Source: a virus | Lineage: Duplodnaviria; Caudoviricetes | Reading direction: 5' to 3' (one strand) | Virus record (IMG/VR): IMGVR_UViG_2895476258_000013 | Coordinates: 1-64,000 of that record | Length of the DNA: 64,000 nt | Shown: positions 2,744 through 19,692 of the stretch, piece by piece | Numbering within the stretch: position 1 is the first letter of the stretch | Layout of the letters: each line of letters starts with the position of its first letter | Notes under the pieces: generated by a model | What the model saw: the letters and a program-made list of their open reading frames with translations, nothing else | Told to the model about the DNA's origin: nothing | Database searches by the model: none | Program-made: the position numbers and the translations under genes

Positions 2744-3591
2744 CCGACCTCGACATCCCGAACGGCTCCCCGTTCGACGCGATCAAGCGGGTAGACGAGT
2801 GCGGCGAGTACTGGTCGGCCCGTGAGTTGATGCCGCTTTTGGGCTACCGGAAGTGGGACAAGTTCGAGGACTCCGTCGAGCGCGCCCGCGTCTCCATCGA
2901 GACGATGGGCATGGACCCCGACGCGGAAGCTTCCCGGCGCCGGGAAGCTTACGGCCGGACCAGGCAGATTGGCGCGAACTACCGGCTGACCCGCCACGGC
3001 GCCTATATCACCGCCATGAACGGCGACGTCCGCAAGCAGGAGATCGCGGCGGCGCAGGCTTACTTCGCAGCCAAGGCACGCGAGGCTGAGGTTGCCGAGT
3101 CTGGCCGCCAGGTTGCCGCGCGGAAGCTGTCGAACCGCGAACTGGCCGCCATGGTGATCGAGGAGGCCGACCGCGCCGACAAGGCCGTGTACCGGGCTGA
3201 GATCGCGGAGGGCAAGTTCCAGGCGATCGAGGCCGGCGACGGGCTGACGCTGACGGCGTTCCACAAGAAGTACTTCAGCGAGGTCACTGAGCGGACGTTC
3301 TTCGAGCACCTGTACTCGCGCGGCTACCTGATCGACCAGCGCGGCAAGGGCTCCGAGCGCGACGACGGAACGTTCCGGAACGGTCCAGAACACCGCCATC
3401 CGACGTTCAAGGGCAAGCCGTTCTTCTACCTGCACGGCAGCGGAGTCCACGGCAAGAAGCGGCGCGAGAACACCCGCGTCCGCCCTGGTGATCCGGAGCT
3501 GCTGCTGAAGGCGGCGCTGTCGAAGGACGGGCTGCGGGCCAACGAGCACAAGGCGGGTTACCTGTTCGCCATCGAGGGCGGCGTGTCATGA
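2740..3591 (+). CDS. Phage antirepressor (Bro-N/DinD-like N-terminus, KilAC-like C-terminus)
   Basis: SPFDAIKRVDECGEYWSARELMPLLGYRKWDKF and LTRHGAYITAMNGDVRKQEIAAAQAYFA motifs. Confidence 0.85.
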   Translation: MTDLDIPNGSPFDAIKRVDECGEYWSARELMPLLGYRKWDKFEDSVERARVSIETMGMDPDAEASRRREAYGRTRQIGANYRLTRHGAYITAMNGDVRKQEIAAAQAYFAAKAREAEVAESGRQVAARKLSNRELAAMVIEEADRADKAVYRAEIAEGKFQAIEAGDGLTLTAFHKKYFSEVTERTFFEHLYSRGYLIDQRGKGSERDDGTFRNGPEHRHPTFKGKPFFYLHGSGVHGKKRRENTRVRPGDPELLLKAALSKDGLRANEHKAGYLFAIEGGVS

Positions 3592-3728
3592 CCGCCTACG
3601 AGTACCACCGCAAGGTGATCGCCTGCTGGCGTGTCGGCTGCATCGAGCGTGACGTCGCCGACCGCGCCGACTACGTGGGCCGCCACCACAAGCCCACACA
3701 AGACGCGAGGCCAGCCGGCCAGGGCTGA
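3588..3728 (+). CDS. Small hypothetical protein (46 aa)
   Basis: ATGA overlap; translated by hand MTAYEYHRKVIACW. Confidence 0.45.
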   Translation: MTAYEYHRKVIACWRVGCIERDVADRADYVGRHHKPTQDARPAGQG

Positions 3729-3782
3729 CCTCGCAGACCACCCGCTCATCCCAAGTCGGACCACGACAAGGAGCAGGAGTCA

Positions 3783-4277
3783 ATGACAGTTTACGACCCA
3801 CCGCCCCGACGAAAGGGCGGACCGAAGCCCAAGCCCATCGCCGAGCAGTTGCTGAGGAAGGTTACGCCAGGCCACGGCGGCTGCTGGATCTGGACCGGCA
3901 TTGTCATCAACTCGGGGTATCCGAGGCTGGGCATCACCCGCCAGAACAAAACCAAGCAGTACCTCGCGCACCGCCTCTCCTACCAACTCTTCGTGGGCCC
4001 CATTCCCGAGGGCATGCAGATCGATCACCTGTGCATGGTCCGGCGCTGCGTCAACCCCCAGCACCTCGAAGCGGTAACGCCTCAGATCAACGTGCTCCGA
4101 TCGCCCAACACCATAGCCAGCCGTTGGGGTCATCGAACCCACTGCGAGAGGGGCCACGAGTACACCGCTGAAAACACTTACCTGCAGCCGCGTCGAGACA
4201 ACCCGGACAAGACCTCGCGCGTGTGCCGCACCTGCAAGAAGGCGTGGAAGCGAGACCGGAAGGCGGCGCAGTCATGA
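3783..4277 (+). CDS. HNH endonuclease
   Basis: CWIWTG...AHRLSY...IDHLCMVRRCVNPQHLEAVT and C-terminal THCERGHEY...CRTC. Confidence 0.9.
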   Translation: MTVYDPPPRRKGGPKPKPIAEQLLRKVTPGHGGCWIWTGIVINSGYPRLGITRQNKTKQYLAHRLSYQLFVGPIPEGMQIDHLCMVRRCVNPQHLEAVTPQINVLRSPNTIASRWGHRTHCERGHEYTAENTYLQPRRDNPDKTSRVCRTCKKAWKRDRKAAQS

Positions 4278-10409: not shown

Positions 10410-11567
10410 ATGACGCCTGACCTCAACGTGGATCTGTTCGGTGGCCCTGGCGGCTGGGCGGTGGCCCTTAGGAAGCTCGGCCTGCGTGAGGTCGGCCTGG
10501 AGTGGGACACCTCGGCATGCAAGACCCGGGCCGCGGCTGGGCATCCGACGATCCAGTGTGACGTCGCCGCCTACCCGACCGAACCGTTCAAAGCCCGCAC
10601 CAAGGGCCTCATCAACTCGGCCCCTTGTCAGGCGTGGTCCCGAGCTGGCAAGGGCCTTGGGCTGAAGGACCAGCCGCTCGTTCATGAGGCTGTCCACGAC
10701 CTGTCCCAGGGCCGCGACACCCGCGCCAGGCTGCTCGCGGCCTGCCGTGACCCGCGGTCCCTGCTGGCCGCGGAGCCGATGCGCTGGCTGTACGACCTGC
10801 GCCCCGAATGGACCGCCATGGAAGAGGTGCCGGACGTGCTGCCGCTGTGGAAGCAGTACGCCGAGGTGTTACGCGGCTGGGGCTACAGCGTGTGGTGCGG
10901 CGAGCTCAACGCCGCCAACTACGGCGTGCCGCAGACCCGGCGCCGTGCGATCCTCATCGCCTCCCGCGTCCGATCCGTAACCGCCCCGGCGCCGACCCAC
11001 ACCCAGCACCCGGCAGGGGACGATCTGTTCGGCGGTTCCCTGGCGGGCTGGGTGTCCATGGCCGAGGCTCTCGGCTGGGGAGCGACGGACCGTGTCTCGC
11101 CGACTGTGACGGCTGGTGGGGGCAAGACGGGCGGTCCCGAGCCGTTCCCCACTCAAGCGCGCCAGGCGCTTCTCAACGCGCAGGAGCGTGGCGCGTGGGT
11201 GTTGCGGACATCGTTTGGTGAACCGTCAGGCGCCAGCGGGACGCATGAGATGGATCCCTTTGTGCGACCCGCCCATGTCGTCACCACCAAGGCCAAAGAC
11301 TGGGCCCTGTCTCGCCCGGCCACCACCGTGTGCGCAACTGACCGGATTGGCGAGTCGCAGTTTGCCAGCCCAGACACGGTGCGGATCACTGTTCGGGAGG
11401 CGGCGATCCTGCAGTCCTTCCCCGCTGACTATCCGTGGAGCGGAACGAAGACCAAGCAGTTCGAGCAGATCGGCAACGCCGTCCCGCCTCTCCTGGCCGC
11501 TCACGTCGTGGCCGCTGCCACCGGTCTTCCCCTGCCTGCCCACATCCGTCAGGAGGCAGCGGCATGA
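10410..11567 (+). CDS. DNA (cytosine-5) methyltransferase
   Basis: DLFGGPGG, catalytic PCQ, EEV, LNAANYGVPQTRRR, QIGNAVPP. Confidence 0.92.
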   Translation: MTPDLNVDLFGGPGGWAVALRKLGLREVGLEWDTSACKTRAAAGHPTIQCDVAAYPTEPFKARTKGLINSAPCQAWSRAGKGLGLKDQPLVHEAVHDLSQGRDTRARLLAACRDPRSLLAAEPMRWLYDLRPEWTAMEEVPDVLPLWKQYAEVLRGWGYSVWCGELNAANYGVPQTRRRAILIASRVRSVTAPAPTHTQHPAGDDLFGGSLAGWVSMAEALGWGATDRVSPTVTAGGGKTGGPEPFPTQARQALLNAQERGAWVLRTSFGEPSGASGTHEMDPFVRPAHVVTTKAKDWALSRPATTVCATDRIGESQFASPDTVRITVREAAILQSFPADYPWSGTKTKQFEQIGNAVPPLLAAHVVAAATGLPLPAHIRQEAAA

Positions 11568-12007: not shown

Positions 12008-12228
12008 AGCTCCGATTGAGCTCTACCGAGTGGACGGAGATCCGCCTCATCGGCTCCCAGAGGGCCGTTGAGGGCGCGGTGCGGATCCTCGCCGAGTGCG
12101 GTGCTGAGATCCGCTCCGACACGGGCACCAAGCCCGCTCAGAAGGGCAAGGACGGCAAGGTCCGCCGGTATCTCGTGGCTCGCCTCGCCGCGGCTCTTCC
12201 CGTACAGGAGGAGACCCGCGATGCCTGA
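12004..12228 (+). CDS. Hypothetical protein
   Basis: GTGA coupled. Confidence 0.55.
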   Translation: MKLRLSSTEWTEIRLIGSQRAVEGAVRILAECGAEIRSDTGTKPAQKGKDGKVRRYLVARLAAALPVQEETRDA

Positions 12229-12997
12229 ACCGTATTTCAAGAGCGACGGCGTTGAGCTGTACCTCGGCGACTGCCGCGAGGTGCTGCCCGCGCTCGGCGT
12301 CAAGGCCGATCTAGTGCTGGCGGATCCTCCGTACGAGGAAACCTCGTTGAAGTGGGATCGCTGGCCGGACGGCTGGCTCGAGGTAGCCGCGAGCGTCAGC
12401 AAGAGCCTCTGGTGCTTCGGTTCCATCCGCATGTTCCTCGAGCACCATGGCGAGTTCGACGCCGCGTGCTGGCGACTGGCACAAGACATCGTGTGGGAGA
12501 AGCACAACGGAAGCGGCTTCCAAACGGACCGGTTCAAACGCGTCCATGAACACGCGCTCCACTGGTATCGGGGCGAGTGGCGCGACCAGCACCTGGACGT
12601 TCCCCGCATCGCCTCAGCCGACCCTAGCGACCTGCGCACCCGCAAGCCGCGTGTCAGCAACGCCCCACACATGGGGGCGATCACCTCCACCGAGCACACC
12701 CGCCGGGACGGCACCCGGTTGATGCGGTCGGTCATTCAGGTGAAGTCGATGAAGGGAAAGGCCCTGCACCCCACCGAGAAGCCGCTGGGGATCTTGGAGC
12801 CGCTACTCCGGTATTCCTGCCCGCTTGGCGGTCTCGTTGTCGATCCGTTCGCCGGGTCCGCCTCCACGTTGGTCGCTGCTCGCCTGTCGGGCCGTCGCGC
12901 GATCGGCGTGGAGGGCTGGGAGCCCTACGCCGAGAAGGCCGCTCTCCGCCTGTCTCAAGCCCCTTTGGACCTGTTCTCGGAGGTCTCCGATGCCTAA
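12221..12997 (+). CDS. DNA N6-adenine/N4-cytosine methyltransferase
   Basis: LYLGDC, DPPY, HPTEKP, VDPFAGSAST. Confidence 0.92.
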   Translation: MPEPYFKSDGVELYLGDCREVLPALGVKADLVLADPPYEETSLKWDRWPDGWLEVAASVSKSLWCFGSIRMFLEHHGEFDAACWRLAQDIVWEKHNGSGFQTDRFKRVHEHALHWYRGEWRDQHLDVPRIASADPSDLRTRKPRVSNAPHMGAITSTEHTRRDGTRLMRSVIQVKSMKGKALHPTEKPLGILEPLLRYSCPLGGLVVDPFAGSASTLVAARLSGRRAIGVEGWEPYAEKAALRLSQAPLDLFSEVSDA

Positions 12998-15754: not shown

Positions 15755-16059
15755 CCAGCACCGATTTGGACCAGGCCACCCGCGAGGCGGTGGCCGCCCT
15801 CGTACACCGGATCCGGGAGCGCGACTTCGCCTCGGAGGAGGACAAGCCCGACGCGGAGCCGTTCGCGCTGGAGTTCGTGATGGCGATGAGGTTCCGCGGC
15901 TGGCGCCCGACGCCGGCGCAGGCCGCGGTGTCGTGGCCTCCGCCCGTGGGCCGCGGCGCCGACCCGGCCAAGCACGCCGACGCGCTGGCCGAAGCCCGTA
16001 TCGACTGCGCCAACGCCGCGGCCAAGTTGCGGTCCGACGAGAGCGAGAGGACTCCATGA
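15751..16059 (+). CDS. Hypothetical protein
   Basis: GTGA coupled. Confidence 0.6.
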   Translation: MTSTDLDQATREAVAALVHRIRERDFASEEDKPDAEPFALEFVMAMRFRGWRPTPAQAAVSWPPPVGRGADPAKHADALAEARIDCANAAAKLRSDESERTP

Positions 16060-16358
16060 GCGCCGACCTAGACGAGCTCGTCGACCAGATGCTTGGCCCG
16101 GCCACCCGGCTGGTGTGCGCGGTTCAGGACTTCGACCCCGAGGAGTCCCACGCGATCCTCGAACCGCTCGACGCGGTCGAGCTTCGCAGCTTGGCTGTGG
16201 CTTTGGCCGCGCTGGTTCCGGACGACATGGCCCTTGAGGTGCTGCTCGCCTGGTCCCGCAACGAGGGGCCGATATCGCCGCGAAAGGCGCGCGTGAACCG
16301 CCGGCGGCTTGAGTCCGAGGTTGCCGAGCACGAGCAGCGCAAGCGGAGCGCCGCTTGA
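16056..16358 (+). CDS. Hypothetical protein
   Basis: ATGA coupled; MSADLDELVDQML. Confidence 0.6.
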   Translation: MSADLDELVDQMLGPATRLVCAVQDFDPEESHAILEPLDAVELRSLAVALAALVPDDMALEVLLAWSRNEGPISPRKARVNRRRLESEVAEHEQRKRSAA

Positions 16359-16530
16359 CCCGGCTCTCCGACCCGATCGGGGAGGAGCCGGCGCTCCTCC
16401 CAGGACCCGACACGAGCGGGGAGCGCGGATGAATCGGACACATCGTCCACAACCTGTGCAAATAGCTGTGGACGGGGGCGCATGAGTTGTTCACCGGACA
16501 GACATGACAACGACCCGAAGGAGAACCGTA

Positions 16531-17034
16531 ATGGCTGACACCAAGATCGACACCCGCATCCCATGCGGCAACGAGGACCACGAGGAGCGCACGCCTGCCG
16601 TCGCTCGGCTGTCGTGGCCGGACGGCCGGTTCCGCCCGACGACGGCCTGCCGGGAGGACCTGGAGGACACGTTCTTGGAGGCAATCGATGAGCGGCTGAC
16701 GCTGCTGATCGAGCCGATCAAGCCCGAAGGCGAGCGCAAGGGCTCGAAGGACTACACCGAGGCGATCCGCGAAGTGGAGAGGGCTTACCGCAACTCCTAC
16801 TCGGAGCCGGTGCGGGCGATCCTCCTGGAGGCGCAGGACATGCCGGGCTACGACATGCTGCCCGACACGCTGGAGGAGCGGCAGCAACTCCCGGCCCGCT
16901 TCCACGTCCCCAGGTGGGACGGCGTGGGAGAGCCGAACCTGTGGCTGTGTGCGGTCTGCTGGGACGAGGGCACCGTGACGCAGTGGCCGTGCAAGGCCGC
17001 TTCGGAGCACGGGGGCGAGGTGTTCGCCCGATGA
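16531..17034 (+). CDS. Hypothetical protein
   Basis: AAGGAG RBS; C-terminal LCAVCW...WPC. Confidence 0.6.
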   Translation: MADTKIDTRIPCGNEDHEERTPAVARLSWPDGRFRPTTACREDLEDTFLEAIDERLTLLIEPIKPEGERKGSKDYTEAIREVERAYRNSYSEPVRAILLEAQDMPGYDMLPDTLEERQQLPARFHVPRWDGVGEPNLWLCAVCWDEGTVTQWPCKAASEHGGEVFAR

Positions 17035-18500
17035 GCGACAAGACGGGCATCTCCTGGAGCGATGCCACGTGGAACCCGATCATCGGCTGCACGAAGGTCA
17101 GCCCCGGCTGCGATCACTGCTACCCGATCCCGCTGTCCCGCATCCGGGAGAAGAACCCCAACCCGAAGGTGGCCGCCGCGTTCGCTGGGGTCGTCGAGCA
17201 GACCGAGAGCGGGCTGGACTGGACTGGTCGCGTCAACCTTCTGCCGGAGCGTCTGGACCAGCCGTTGCGGTGGCGCAAGCCGCGCCGCGTCTTCGTCAAC
17301 AGCCTCGCCGATCTCTTCCATGAGGCCGTGCCAGACCAGTTCATCGCCAAGGTGTTCGCGGTCATGGCGCTGGCTCCGCAGCATTCCTTCCAGGTCCTCA
17401 GCAAGCGGCATGCCCGGATGCGCAGCCTCCTGGCCAACCCCGAGTTCCCTCACGCGGTGGCGCGGGCAATGGACGCCGTGCAGGTCGATCTGGAGCACGA
17501 CCCTGCGGAGTTGTGGAAACCCATCCCGGGCTTAGAGGGGTACGAGGCGTCCTCTCACGGGCGCGTGCGGGGCGAGACCGGTTTATTGGCAACCTGCATA
17601 AATCCACGGTCCGGACGGGAGACAGTGACGCTGTGGAACCGAGGAGAGCCGAAGACCCTTACGGTTCACCGCCTGGTTCTCACGGCTCACTCTGCTGATG
17701 ACCAGCCAGGCGCAGAAGTGTGTCACCGCAACGGAGACAAGCGAGACAACAGACTCGCCAACCTCCGGTGGGGAACCCGGTCGGAGAACCAGCGGGAGAA
17801 GGTCCGACACGGATCACGAGGAGGTCCCCAGAAACTCACGCCCGCAGAGGTCGAGGAGATCCGGGCGGCACGTCGAACCGGGCTCACTCAGCAGGCGCTA
17901 GCAGACCGGTTCGGCATTTCCAGGTCCCTCGTGAGCCTGATCGAGAGCGGCCGGGTTTGGAGCGGCCCCGACATCCCATGGCCGCTCCCGAACGTCTGGA
18001 TCGGCGTATCTTGCGAGAACCAGCAGTGGGCGGACATCCGAATCCCGGCACTCTTGGAGACGCCCGCTGCCGTCCGGTGGATCTCCGCTGAGCCTCTACT
18101 TGGACCTATCATCCTGCGCGATGACTGGCTCGGCGCTGACCCGTACCGGCGTGACGAGCCGTCGCTCAACTGGGTCGTGGCCGGGGGTGAGTCCGGACCT
18201 GGAGCGCGGCCGATGCACCCGAAATGGGTCAAGGACCTGCGCGACCAATGCCAGCAGGCAGGCGTCGCCTATCACTTCAAACAGTGGGGCGAGTGGCGTC
18301 CACAGCCCCGCTACTCGACCGACGACCGCCATCACCTGGTGATGCTGAACGGCATGGACCGGGGCACGCCGTGGCCCGGGTGGGGACTCGACCAGCCCGA
18401 GGCAGAGGTGATGGAGCGCGTCGGTAAGAAGCGCGCCGGCCGCGAGCTGGATGGGCGGACTTGGGACGAGTTCCCGCAGGAGGTGGCCGTCCATGGCTGA
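17031..18500 (+). CDS. Gp37/Gp68 (DUF5131) protein with in-frame NUMOD4-HNH-HTH insertion
   Basis: TWNPIIGCTKVSPGCDHCY, VFVNSLADLFH, NVWIGVSCENQ, SAEPLLGP, VAGGESGP, FKQWG. Confidence 0.88.
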   Translation: MSDKTGISWSDATWNPIIGCTKVSPGCDHCYPIPLSRIREKNPNPKVAAAFAGVVEQTESGLDWTGRVNLLPERLDQPLRWRKPRRVFVNSLADLFHEAVPDQFIAKVFAVMALAPQHSFQVLSKRHARMRSLLANPEFPHAVARAMDAVQVDLEHDPAELWKPIPGLEGYEASSHGRVRGETGLLATCINPRSGRETVTLWNRGEPKTLTVHRLVLTAHSADDQPGAEVCHRNGDKRDNRLANLRWGTRSENQREKVRHGSRGGPQKLTPAEVEEIRAARRTGLTQQALADRFGISRSLVSLIESGRVWSGPDIPWPLPNVWIGVSCENQQWADIRIPALLETPAAVRWISAEPLLGPIILRDDWLGADPYRRDEPSLNWVVAGGESGPGARPMHPKWVKDLRDQCQQAGVAYHFKQWGEWRPQPRYSTDDRHHLVMLNGMDRGTPWPGWGLDQPEAEVMERVGKKRAGRELDGRTWDEFPQEVAVHG

Positions 18501-18789
18501 CACCAAGACAGAGAAGACCGTCGCCTCCGAGCTCCTCACCGCCGCCACTCGGCTCCGCTGCACCACCCACTCTTTCCCGCGCAACGCGATCAGCGAGAGT
18601 CCCTGCGAGCGCTGCGGCATCTCGGCCCACAACGCGTGGATCACCGTCGTCAATCCAGCCCTGGCTGAGCCTCTCGCCTCCTGGCTGGAGTCCTGGGACG
18701 GGGTCGAACTCCGCGAGGACGGCCCGCTACCGGCTGATTTCGAGTTCGCCCTGAGGATCGCCCGGGTCTTGAACGGGACCACCTCGTGA
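18493..18789 (+). CDS. Hypothetical protein
   Basis: Overlaps upstream stop; CERC. Confidence 0.55.
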   Translation: MADTKTEKTVASELLTAATRLRCTTHSFPRNAISESPCERCGISAHNAWITVVNPALAEPLASWLESWDGVELREDGPLPADFEFALRIARVLNGTTS

Positions 18790-19202
18790 GCGGCCCGTGG
18801 CGTAAGTCGACCTTCTGCAACGGCGCTGACGCCTGCGTCCTGGTGGCGCACGTCGATGGCCTGGTGATGGTGCGGGACTCCAAAGAGCAGGACGGCCCGG
18901 TGCTCAAGGTGACGGCCGAGGACTGGCAGGCGTTCGTTGAGGCGATCGCGTTCCGTTCGCGCGGCGACGTCGGCCCGCTCCGGCTCTCTCGCGAAGGCGA
19001 CAACGTGTGGGCGATGACCTACCAGGACTCGCCTGGGGCGCTGCTGTTCGGGGACTCGGAGGTCGCGGCGTTCGTCGCTGGCGTCAAGGACGGCGAGTTC
19101 GACTTGGCCGCGCTCGCATCCGGGTCGCTCGGTTCGGACGGGGATGACCGCAGCGGGCCCCACAATGCGCCTACGGCTGGCGTTGGGGTCAAGAACGGGT
19201 AA
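18786..19202 (+). CDS. Tandem DUF397-domain protein
   Basis: WRKSTFCNGADACVLVA...VRDSK...W.AF, then a second ...EVAAFVAGVKDGEFD. Confidence 0.8.
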   Translation: MSGPWRKSTFCNGADACVLVAHVDGLVMVRDSKEQDGPVLKVTAEDWQAFVEAIAFRSRGDVGPLRLSREGDNVWAMTYQDSPGALLFGDSEVAAFVAGVKDGEFDLAALASGSLGSDGDDRSGPHNAPTAGVGVKNG

Positions 19203-19326
19203 TGCCTAGGGCGGCCCGCCGGTCGGGTCTCAGGGGCCTCTACAGCCTCGCGGGTCGCTCACCAGTCCGAGAAAGATCACAGATCAAGCTCGTCAAGATC
19301 GATATTCGACTTAGAAAGGGAACGCC

Positions 19327-19692
19327 ATGGGCGTCAGCATGTACCCCGGTAGGGCCTCGTGGAGCTACTCCGGGTTCGGTTCCTTCAGGGATCGGCTCGC
19401 GCAAGCCGAGGGCTTCGACCTGCGTGAGATGGCAGGCTTCGCGCCGTTCGATGCACCCGAGGACTGGACGGGCAAGCCCTGGGACACCGTGCACACCACG
19501 CTGGAGCCGCTACTCAACCACTCCGACTGTGACGGCTACCTCGACGCCTACGAGTGCGAGCAAGTCATCCCGCGCCTACGCCAGATCATCGCGACCTGGC
19601 CGGAGTCCGACTACGACCGGCAGCACGGCGAGGCCCTGATTAAAGGCATGGAGCACTGCGTAGAGCACGGCTGCTCCATGCGGTTCGCGTAG
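19327..19692 (+). CDS. Hypothetical protein
   Basis: AAAGGGA RBS; WSYSGF...LLNHSDCDG. Confidence 0.7.
   Translation: MGVSMYPGRASWSYSGFGSFRDRLAQAEGFDLREMAGFAPFDAPEDWTGKPWDTVHTTLEPLLNHSDCDGYLDAYECEQVIPRLRQIIATWPESDYDRQHGEALIKGMEHCVEHGCSMRFA

Follow-up and report, generated by a model that had tools for sequence, protein, structure and literature searches.

How can a homing endonuclease gene persist inside the coding sequence of another gene when neither an intron nor an intein is there to remove it? Homing endonuclease genes are thought to survive within genes only by way of intron or intein removal, or else to reside between genes. The question is raised by a 64,000-nucleotide stretch of viral DNA (IMG/VR record IMGVR_UViG_2895476258_000013, positions 1 to 64,000; hereafter, the window), which comes from a prophage or phage of a high-GC actinomycete and has nearly all of its genes on the plus strand. 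One of these genes encodes a protein of the DUF5131 (Gp37/Gp68) family, a predicted radical S-adenosylmethionine (radical-SAM) enzyme, that contains an endonuclease module consisting of NUMOD4, HNH and helix-turn-helix (HTH) elements in the reading frame of the host protein. The most probable explanation, in which we place moderate confidence, is that this module is a mobile homing-endonuclease cassette that does without splicing and resides, as an internal domain, in a host enzyme that tolerates it. The gene and its parts, with positions in the window and in the 489-amino acid (aa) product, P0001, are as follows.

17031..18500, plus strand: the whole gene, a DUF5131 (Gp37/Gp68) predicted radical-SAM protein with the in-frame endonuclease insert, 489 aa plus stop
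17031..17435, plus strand: host N-terminal half, aa 1-135, Pfam profile positions 1 to about 123, terminating in QVLSKRHARMRSLL
17088-17120, plus strand: Cx6CxxC cluster motif (C20, C27, C30) within the host N-terminal half
17436..17507, plus strand: helix and linker ahead of the insert, aa 136-159, NPEFPHAVARAMDAVQVDLEHDPA, with a model helix at 139-155, partly common to insert-free loops
17508..17966, plus strand: in-frame endonuclease cassette of the I-HmuI-like NUMOD4-HNH-HTH type, aa 160-312
17508..17573, plus strand: NUMOD4 motif, an N-terminal beta-sheet DNA-binding element, aa 160-181 (PF07463, 1.7e-5, 25.4 bits against a cut-off of 23.4)
17664..17795, plus strand: HNH core, aa 212-255 (HNH_3, 5e-11)
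17721-17723, 17724-17726 and 17787-17789, plus strand: codons of the HNH residues C231 (at the position of Asp74 of I-HmuI), H232 and N253, with N244 between the last two
17829..17957, plus strand: C-terminal HTH, aa 267-309 (HTH_3, HTH_31 and Sigma70_r4 matches)
17967..18497, plus strand: host C-terminal half, aa 313-489, Pfam profile positions 124-243, opening with the highly conserved WPLPNVWIGVS strand

The presence of in-frame NUMOD4, HNH and HTH elements inside the DUF5131 gene, which a preliminary description of this DNA had placed at 17508-17963 (aa 160-311), was confirmed by Pfam searches, and all of the motifs quoted there are present. In a phmmer search against solved structures, the insert matches the HNH nicking enzyme I-HmuI (1u3e) at 3.4e-9, with the NUMOD4 part aligning from I-HmuI residue 3 onward. 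The AlphaFold2 modelling that the preliminary description had proposed, built on 100 homologues and covering the whole protein, yielded a confident model (predicted local distance difference test score (pLDDT) 94; predicted template modelling score (pTM) 0.92) in which the insert adopts the I-HmuI fold: Foldseek retrieves I-HmuI at 6e-8 over 165 columns, and VIA-align superimposes model residues 160-264 on I-HmuI residues 1-106 with a Z of 13.8 and a root-mean-square deviation (rmsd) of 1.6 A over 103 residues, at 33% identity. The HTH_3 and HTH_31 matches span aa 277-309, and the model has HTH helices at 271-282, 287-294 and 298-306. The agreement of sequence and predicted structure excludes a chance resemblance to I-HmuI.

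An exhaustive HMMER search with the insert alone recovered >100,000 relatives. The free-standing ones, 157-195 aa in length, start 3-20 residues before a conserved Trp and mostly end 2-10 residues after a conserved G-x-x-W; the cassette spans from two residues before this Trp (W162) to just past its last Trp, W310. Because the ends coincide, the cassette corresponds to a whole free-standing gene minus its start and stop codons. A search for an internal start or ribosome-binding site that would allow separate translation of the cassette came out negative: M147 is present in just 12 of the 46 insert-bearing protein clusters analysed below, and no Shine-Dalgarno sequence that would be convincing turned up. 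Multi-copy arrays of NUMOD4-HNH_3 and HTH units are frequent among the relatives of the cassette. The longer relatives were considered as candidates for other invaded host enzymes, and this was rejected for the four that were scanned from the top 150 (P0123, P0133, P0142 and P0191, 527-764 aa), each of which is a tandem NUMOD4-HNH-HTH protein with two NUMOD4-HNH_3 units and several HTH units. The second match to P0001 in the ESM Atlas is a 53-member viral cluster (score 0.79) in which 94% of the members have NUMOD4 and 36% have Fer4_12, a 4Fe-4S domain known from radical-SAM activases; it is only a lead to similar endonuclease fusions in another phage Fe-S enzyme family.

The beta-beta-alpha-metal core of an HNH nuclease, with the general-base His and conserved Asn residues, is present in the cassette, as indicated by the HNH_3 match and the close superposition on I-HmuI. 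To see how this core fares across the family, we rely on a cluster survey that comprised the 120 best-scoring clusters from a 5.8-billion-protein search, 46 of which carry an insert of about 150 aa at exactly the same site. Among these 46 carriers, H232, N240, N244, N253, G235, L245 and W247 are invariant, H213 and H260 are nearly so, no truncated or decayed cassettes were found, and the length of the insert is constant (204-213 residues in the scored interval). On average, two carriers are 51% identical in their inserts and 53% identical in their host parts. The exception to the I-HmuI pattern is C231, which aligns with Asp74 of I-HmuI, a residue that we take to be a metal ligand immediately before the catalytic His. 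The carriers have Cys (33), Arg (11), Gly (1) or Ala (1) at this position, never Asp, and the free-standing relatives have Cys (11), Arg (4), Ala (1) or Leu (1), so that the Cys/Arg pattern is a trait of the subfamily and not a decay of the embedded copies. The Asp-to-Cys/Arg change was accordingly rejected as a specific mark of a dead nuclease.

Nothing at the boundaries of the cassette resembles a splicing element. The junctions read ...HDPAE/LWKPIPG... and ...GRVWSGPDIPW/PLPNVWIGVS (the slash marks the boundary), with no Cys, Ser or Thr at the start of the insert and no His-Asn followed by Cys, Ser or Thr at its end. No Hint/intein domain is matched in P0001 by Pfam, and the I-HmuI fold takes up the entire 153-aa insert, so that a Hint domain (about 130 aa) could not be accommodated. 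For RNA-level elements, an Rfam search of 16000-19500 for introns yielded nothing below E 8, and the RNA folding of 17440-18000 was ordinary in comparison with shuffled sequences (z -1.69). The open frame and the conserved protein sequence run through both junctions. By the Hint and junction criteria, the cassette is not an intein and, by the RNA criteria, it is not a known group I or group II intron, in agreement with the earlier remark that the locus lacks splicing elements, intein end residues and stop codons. In the absence of an intron or intein, the cassette would be translated as an internal, separately folded domain, a conclusion at the level of sequence and model. A positive control is provided by a second DUF5131 gene of the same genome (contig C155, L006:64-1869, 601 aa), which has a canonical intein (CLAPETRVL...THN/C) with a weak LAGLIDADG_3 match; this intein interrupts the Fe-S motif Cx6CxxC at its third Cys, and protein P0068 (733 aa) likewise has an insertion at this profile position (about 25). 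The genome of the window has a third DUF5131 gene, on contig C96, which carries no interruption.

The host part of the protein shows every sign of being intact. The frame 16914..18500 on the plus strand is open throughout, without stop codons, and translation of the 489-aa protein is likely to begin at ATG 17031, where start and stop codons of this gene and of the upstream ORF overlap. P0001 matches DUF5131 (PF07505) at 1e-92, scoring 310.5 bits (cut-off 28.9). The match consists of two stretches that reach to the end of the profile (243/243) and split at profile position 123/124, the second stretch (aa 305-482) corresponding to positions 124-243; PHROG 2045 matches at 6e-115. Every invariant host residue is kept together with the Cx6CxxC motif, the three cysteines of which are >90% conserved, and the half that opens with WPLPNVWIGVS is conserved alike with and without the insert. 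The named insert-free DUF5131 proteins nearest to P0001 come from Nonomuraea, Acrocarpospora, Actinomadura and Streptomyces. DUF5131 is classed in the radical SAM superfamily, within Megacluster-5-2 of RadicalSAM.org, and spore photoproduct lyase belongs to Megacluster-5-3 (PMC9477430). The host fold of the model matches radical-SAM enzymes with Z of 8.5-12.4, the top match being spore photoproduct lyase (4fhc, Z 12.4), and, judging from the predicted fold and the Cys motif, the DUF5131 host domain is likely to be a radical-SAM partial barrel.

Alignment with uninterrupted DUF5131 homologues upholds the earlier proposal that the endonuclease landed in a variable loop: when the insert is absent, the distance from the SKR/TKR motif to the PLPNVW motif varies over 14-62 residues. 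The PEFxxxV start of the linker is present in insert-free alleles as well, and one protein, P0055, has a similar IDALxxDDPDE stretch. In the model, the helix 139-155 precedes the insert and the strand 322-328 comes after it, so that the insert is predicted to sit in a surface loop that leads from an alpha helix into a beta strand. In TIM-like barrels, loops of this orientation are found on the side away from the active site. Only a few codons separate the insertion point from the downstream stretch that encodes WPLPNVWLGVS, the most conserved part of the gene, and this conserved DNA would be of the kind that homing endonucleases typically recognise.

A second form of invasion was found at the same DUF5131 loop in another viral locus (L022:3334-3970; IMGVR_UViG_3300037067_004399). 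Here, the insertion is likewise open in the host frame, in which it reads as a 209-residue low-complexity stretch, and another frame (3407-3967) encodes a 186-aa HNH_3 protein (3.4e-15), with the stop codon at the very end of the insertion. This HNH protein is colinear with the cassette of the window at 28% identity, and the GC content of the insertion is 0.54 compared with 0.61-0.62 in the flanks. A host frame open across the HNH open reading frame (ORF) was obtained in 1 of 5000 codon shuffles and in 3 of 5000 synonymous redraws. The L022 locus makes it evident that HNH genes target this loop and that the host protein is kept readable across them by selection; splicing would make the open host frame unnecessary, which argues against it. 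In a further locus (L066:3000-4384; IMGVR_UViG_3300037153_000540), the DUF5131 gene ends with one variant of the C-terminal tail and is overlapped by an ORF in another frame that contains a LAGLIDADG motif (LAYLAGVIDSDGY) and ends in an alternative DUF5131 tail (GRELDGRTWDEFP). This ORF looks like an endonuclease gene carrying a piece of the 3' end of the host gene.

How common is the in-frame arrangement? The share of carriers in the cluster survey (46 of 120) is inflated because the insert itself adds to the search score. One carrier, from Streptomyces bottropensis, bears no label other than 'DUF5131 family protein', and the ESM Atlas contains a 58-member, mostly viral cluster that is automatically named for this architecture. 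Among the viral DUF5131 loci fetched from IMG/VR, 3 of 81 have an insertion at this site; the cassette was detected in none of 400 same-family genomes at E 1e-25; and a scan of genome contigs with the cassette gave pattern matches and no confirmed relative. DUF5131 is present in 1274 cultured-phage records, in five of which >=80% of the query is covered; for the two whose arrangement was inspected (H1 and H4), this coverage is due to a separate nearby HNH gene, and the remaining three (H2, H3 and H5) list the same gene arrangement. No description of the arrangement was found in the literature on DUF5131, Gp37Gp68 and NUMOD4 with an in-frame insertion. Overall, the arrangement is recurrent, already present in databases, and a minority form. 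The preliminary description had named, as a finding that would count against it, a common annotated architecture with dead HNH residues, and only half of this holds: the recurrence is borne out by the 46 clusters and the 58-member Atlas cluster, but the residues are not dead, H232, N240, N244 and N253 being invariant.

Several lines of evidence speak for movement of the cassette. The two host halves of P0001 are 85% and 81% identical to those of the insert-free protein P0007, compared with at most 72% and 64% for any carrier, and, in a tree of the host columns, P0001 clusters with two insert-free proteins with 99% support. This tree forces at least 7 gains or losses of the insert, and a single clade of carriers is rejected by the approximately unbiased (AU) test (delta lnL 285, p 0.002). 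Among the pairs of carriers, the identities of insert and host are nearly uncorrelated (r = 0.17), with some pairs at 89% in the insert and 64% in the host and others at 37% and 67%, respectively; hence, divergent cassette lineages occupy the same site. The insert and host alignments each reject the tree of the other. The composition of the insert is distinct as well: its GC content at third codon positions (GC3) is 0.71, below that of every other gene called in the window, compared with 0.90 and 0.81 in the host halves.

Several points weigh against mobility driven by an active nuclease. First, in a control, the N- and C-terminal halves of the host reject each other's trees as strongly as insert and host do, and the two halves (aa 1-135 and 316-482; 17031-17435 and 17976-18476) differ in their nearest relatives (P0037 at 87%/65%, P0023 at 58%/87%), which points to frequent recombination inside DUF5131 genes around the loop. 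Since mosaicism affects the entire gene, incongruent trees by themselves do not suffice to establish nuclease-driven transfer, and the conflict between the insert and host trees, which had been considered as proof of insert-specific mobility, was downgraded. Second, general phage mosaicism could move the cassette without the nuclease. Third, the closest known insert is 74% identical to that of the window, so no recent transfer was caught. Fourth, the acidic ligand that precedes the catalytic His in I-HmuI-like enzymes is replaced by Cys231. Fifth, the host-like conservation of the insert, its constant length and the confident two-domain model would be compatible as well with a domain that is kept for a role in the host.

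With these reservations, a scenario can be outlined in which a free-standing-type, I-HmuI-like HNH gene was inserted whole and in frame into the length-variable loop of a prophage DUF5131 gene, leaving the host enzyme otherwise intact and folding separately as an internal domain. Under this proposal, the cassette persists because the loop tolerates the insertion and the host frame stays open, and it would spread, or would have recently spread, between DUF5131 alleles through recombination. The likely trigger would be nicking or cutting of insert-free alleles by the embedded nuclease, beside the sequence that encodes WPLPNVWLGVS, during encounters between phages or prophages. The in-frame cassette and the out-of-frame insertion of L022 would then represent two ways to keep the host frame open across the same kind of invader. 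From the patchy spread of the cassette and the incongruent trees, the latter weakened by the host-half control, we infer nuclease activity and homing. That the 489-aa fusion itself is the active homing enzyme, acting as an internal domain of an intact radical-SAM enzyme without RNA or protein splicing, is a serious possibility to which we give somewhat less than an even chance.

The neighbourhood of the gene has some bearing on the function of the host enzyme. The window encodes, among other proteins, Bro-N, an AAA_24 ATPase, two DNA methylases, WhiB, DUF397, a terminase and a 1461-aa tape-measure-like protein. Upstream of the DUF5131 gene are the following.

10410-11567: C5 DNA methylase gene, upstream of the DUF5131 gene
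12068-12997: N6/N4 DNA methylase gene, upstream of the DUF5131 gene
16504-17034: upstream ORF, 176 aa, the stop of which overlaps the DUF5131 start as ATGA

The 176-aa ORF has no match in Pfam and PHROG searches, and its ATGA overlap with the DUF5131 start suggests translational coupling. Spore photoproduct lyase (4fhc) is a DNA-repair radical-SAM enzyme and, together with the methylase genes upstream, provides a hint that DUF5131 acts on DNA.

Such a function is central to the alternative that survives best, namely that the endonuclease module was co-opted for DNA binding, targeting or nicking, bringing a DNA-acting radical-SAM enzyme to its substrate, and is kept by selection on the phage and not by homing. 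The insert is indeed as conserved as the host, of constant length and without decayed copies in the 46 clusters, the two-domain model is confident, and the kinship of the host domain to spore photoproduct lyase, with the two families in neighbouring megaclusters (PMC9477430) and the gene downstream of two DNA methylase genes, fits this possibility. A domain so retained, however, would hardly be missing from the nearest host-domain relatives of P0001 and scattered over the host tree, found in only 3 of 81 viral loci and none of the 400 same-family genomes, or foreign-looking in GC3; a pure binding module would not need the invariant catalytic His and Asn; and the out-of-frame HNH protein of L022 cannot supply a domain to the host protein at all. 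We consider co-option rather unlikely. The preliminary description had offered two readings, a selfish endonuclease rendered harmless by its site of insertion and a fusion that targets the Fe-S enzyme to DNA; the first is favoured by the patchy distribution, foreign composition, divergent lineages and out-of-frame variant, and the second is the less favoured.

Less likely still is that the cassette homed long ago and is now an inactive nuclease, carried neutrally and moved by the ordinary recombination of mosaic phage genes. The free recombination between the N- and C-terminal halves of the host is in line with this possibility, as is the lack of near-identical inserts in different hosts, the best pair being 89% identical. 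The Cys or Arg at the Asp74 position could be added, but the same residues are common in the free-standing relatives, which are presumably active. Moreover, a neutral insert of 150 aa should accumulate deletions, frameshifts and losses of catalytic residues, and the 46 clusters, for all their divergence (to about 50% identity), show none of these. Finally, removal of the insert by an unrecognised intein-like reaction or intron is highly improbable, given that the I-HmuI fold accounts for all 153 aa, that the junctions lack the Cys/Ser start and the His-Asn plus Cys/Ser/Thr end by which the intein of the same genome in L006 was easily recognised, that there is no Rfam match, an ordinary RNA fold and a frame kept through both junctions, and that the host frame of L022 is open against the odds.

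A mobile, splice-free cassette in a tolerant host enzyme can be compared with several known systems. The cassette shares with I-HmuI (1u3e), from Bacillus phage SPO1, the domain order, the fold, the general-base His and the Asn ligand; I-HmuI, however, is a separate protein encoded in a group I intron, whereas its counterpart in the window forms part of a host polypeptide, with Cys in place of Asp74. Like endonuclease-bearing inteins, the cassette is an in-frame selfish insertion in a conserved gene that is translated together with the host; inteins differ in having a Hint domain, Cys...His-Asn/Cys junctions and sites in highly conserved motifs (the Fe-S CxxC in L006), whereas the cassette lacks these features and occupies a variable loop. 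Free-standing homologues of the cassette are encoded by Gordonia and Mycobacterium phages (EnalisNailo gp66, Twister6 gp58 and TChen gp67; 35-39% identity, E 2e-16), where each HNH gene is a separate unit that starts and stops on its own codons, within one to three genes of an uninterrupted DUF5131 gene.

DUF5131 thus offers a compact natural system in which an in-frame cassette, an out-of-frame counterpart at the same site and a canonical intein elsewhere in the family can be studied side by side, with respect to homing while embedded in a host protein, the permissiveness of loops, and the interconversion of free-standing, fused and nested forms. As to the function of DUF5131, the structural resemblance of the host domain to spore photoproduct lyase offers a lead, and, if the fusion is active, a DNA-binding module might have been given to a DNA-acting enzyme that resembles this lyase. 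The arrangement also matters for annotation because such proteins are now labelled only 'DUF5131 family protein'.

The closest parallels come from the methylase genes of actinobacteriophages. Taj_79-type methylases contain a lone in-frame LAGLIDADG domain, without an intein or intron, that is predicted to form its own domain (PMC9957025). This is, as in the window, an in-frame homing-endonuclease domain inside a host enzyme with no splicing element; however, the nuclease belongs to another family and its divergence tracks that of the host, i.e. it is inherited vertically, whereas the carriers of the DUF5131 cassette are scattered and a single clade is rejected. The ShiLan domain is a hidden HNH endonuclease insertion in actinobacteriophage DNA methylase genes with no detectable splicing (Arsenault, Gosselin and Gogarten 2025, PMC11855218; earlier PMC9957025). 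The resemblance to the window extends to a non-essential host gene of actinophage DNA metabolism, an open host frame, the lack of an intein or intron, an HNH nuclease and a disjunct distribution (PMC11855218), and the insert in the window likewise leaves the host frame open, lacks a splicing element and is disjunct among alleles. The differences are that the ShiLan HNH is flanked by zinc fingers and resides in a methylase, whereas the cassette is of the NUMOD4-HNH_3-HTH (I-HmuI) type in a radical-SAM DUF5131 host, and that the ShiLan endonuclease is encoded in a different frame from the host, whereas the HNH in the window is read in the host frame and is therefore a true internal domain of the host protein for which a separate translation start is unneeded. 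L022 is exactly the out-of-frame ShiLan form, at the DUF5131 loop. If the fusion is active, it and the out-of-frame form would together define a third strategy, free of splicing, by which homing endonuclease genes persist within other genes. The locus in the window adds the simplest splice-free form, a whole HNH gene fused in frame within a tolerant loop and represented by dozens of diverged alleles, and, as such, is the in-frame HNH counterpart, in a different host family, to the published ShiLan and LAGLIDADG insertions in methylases.

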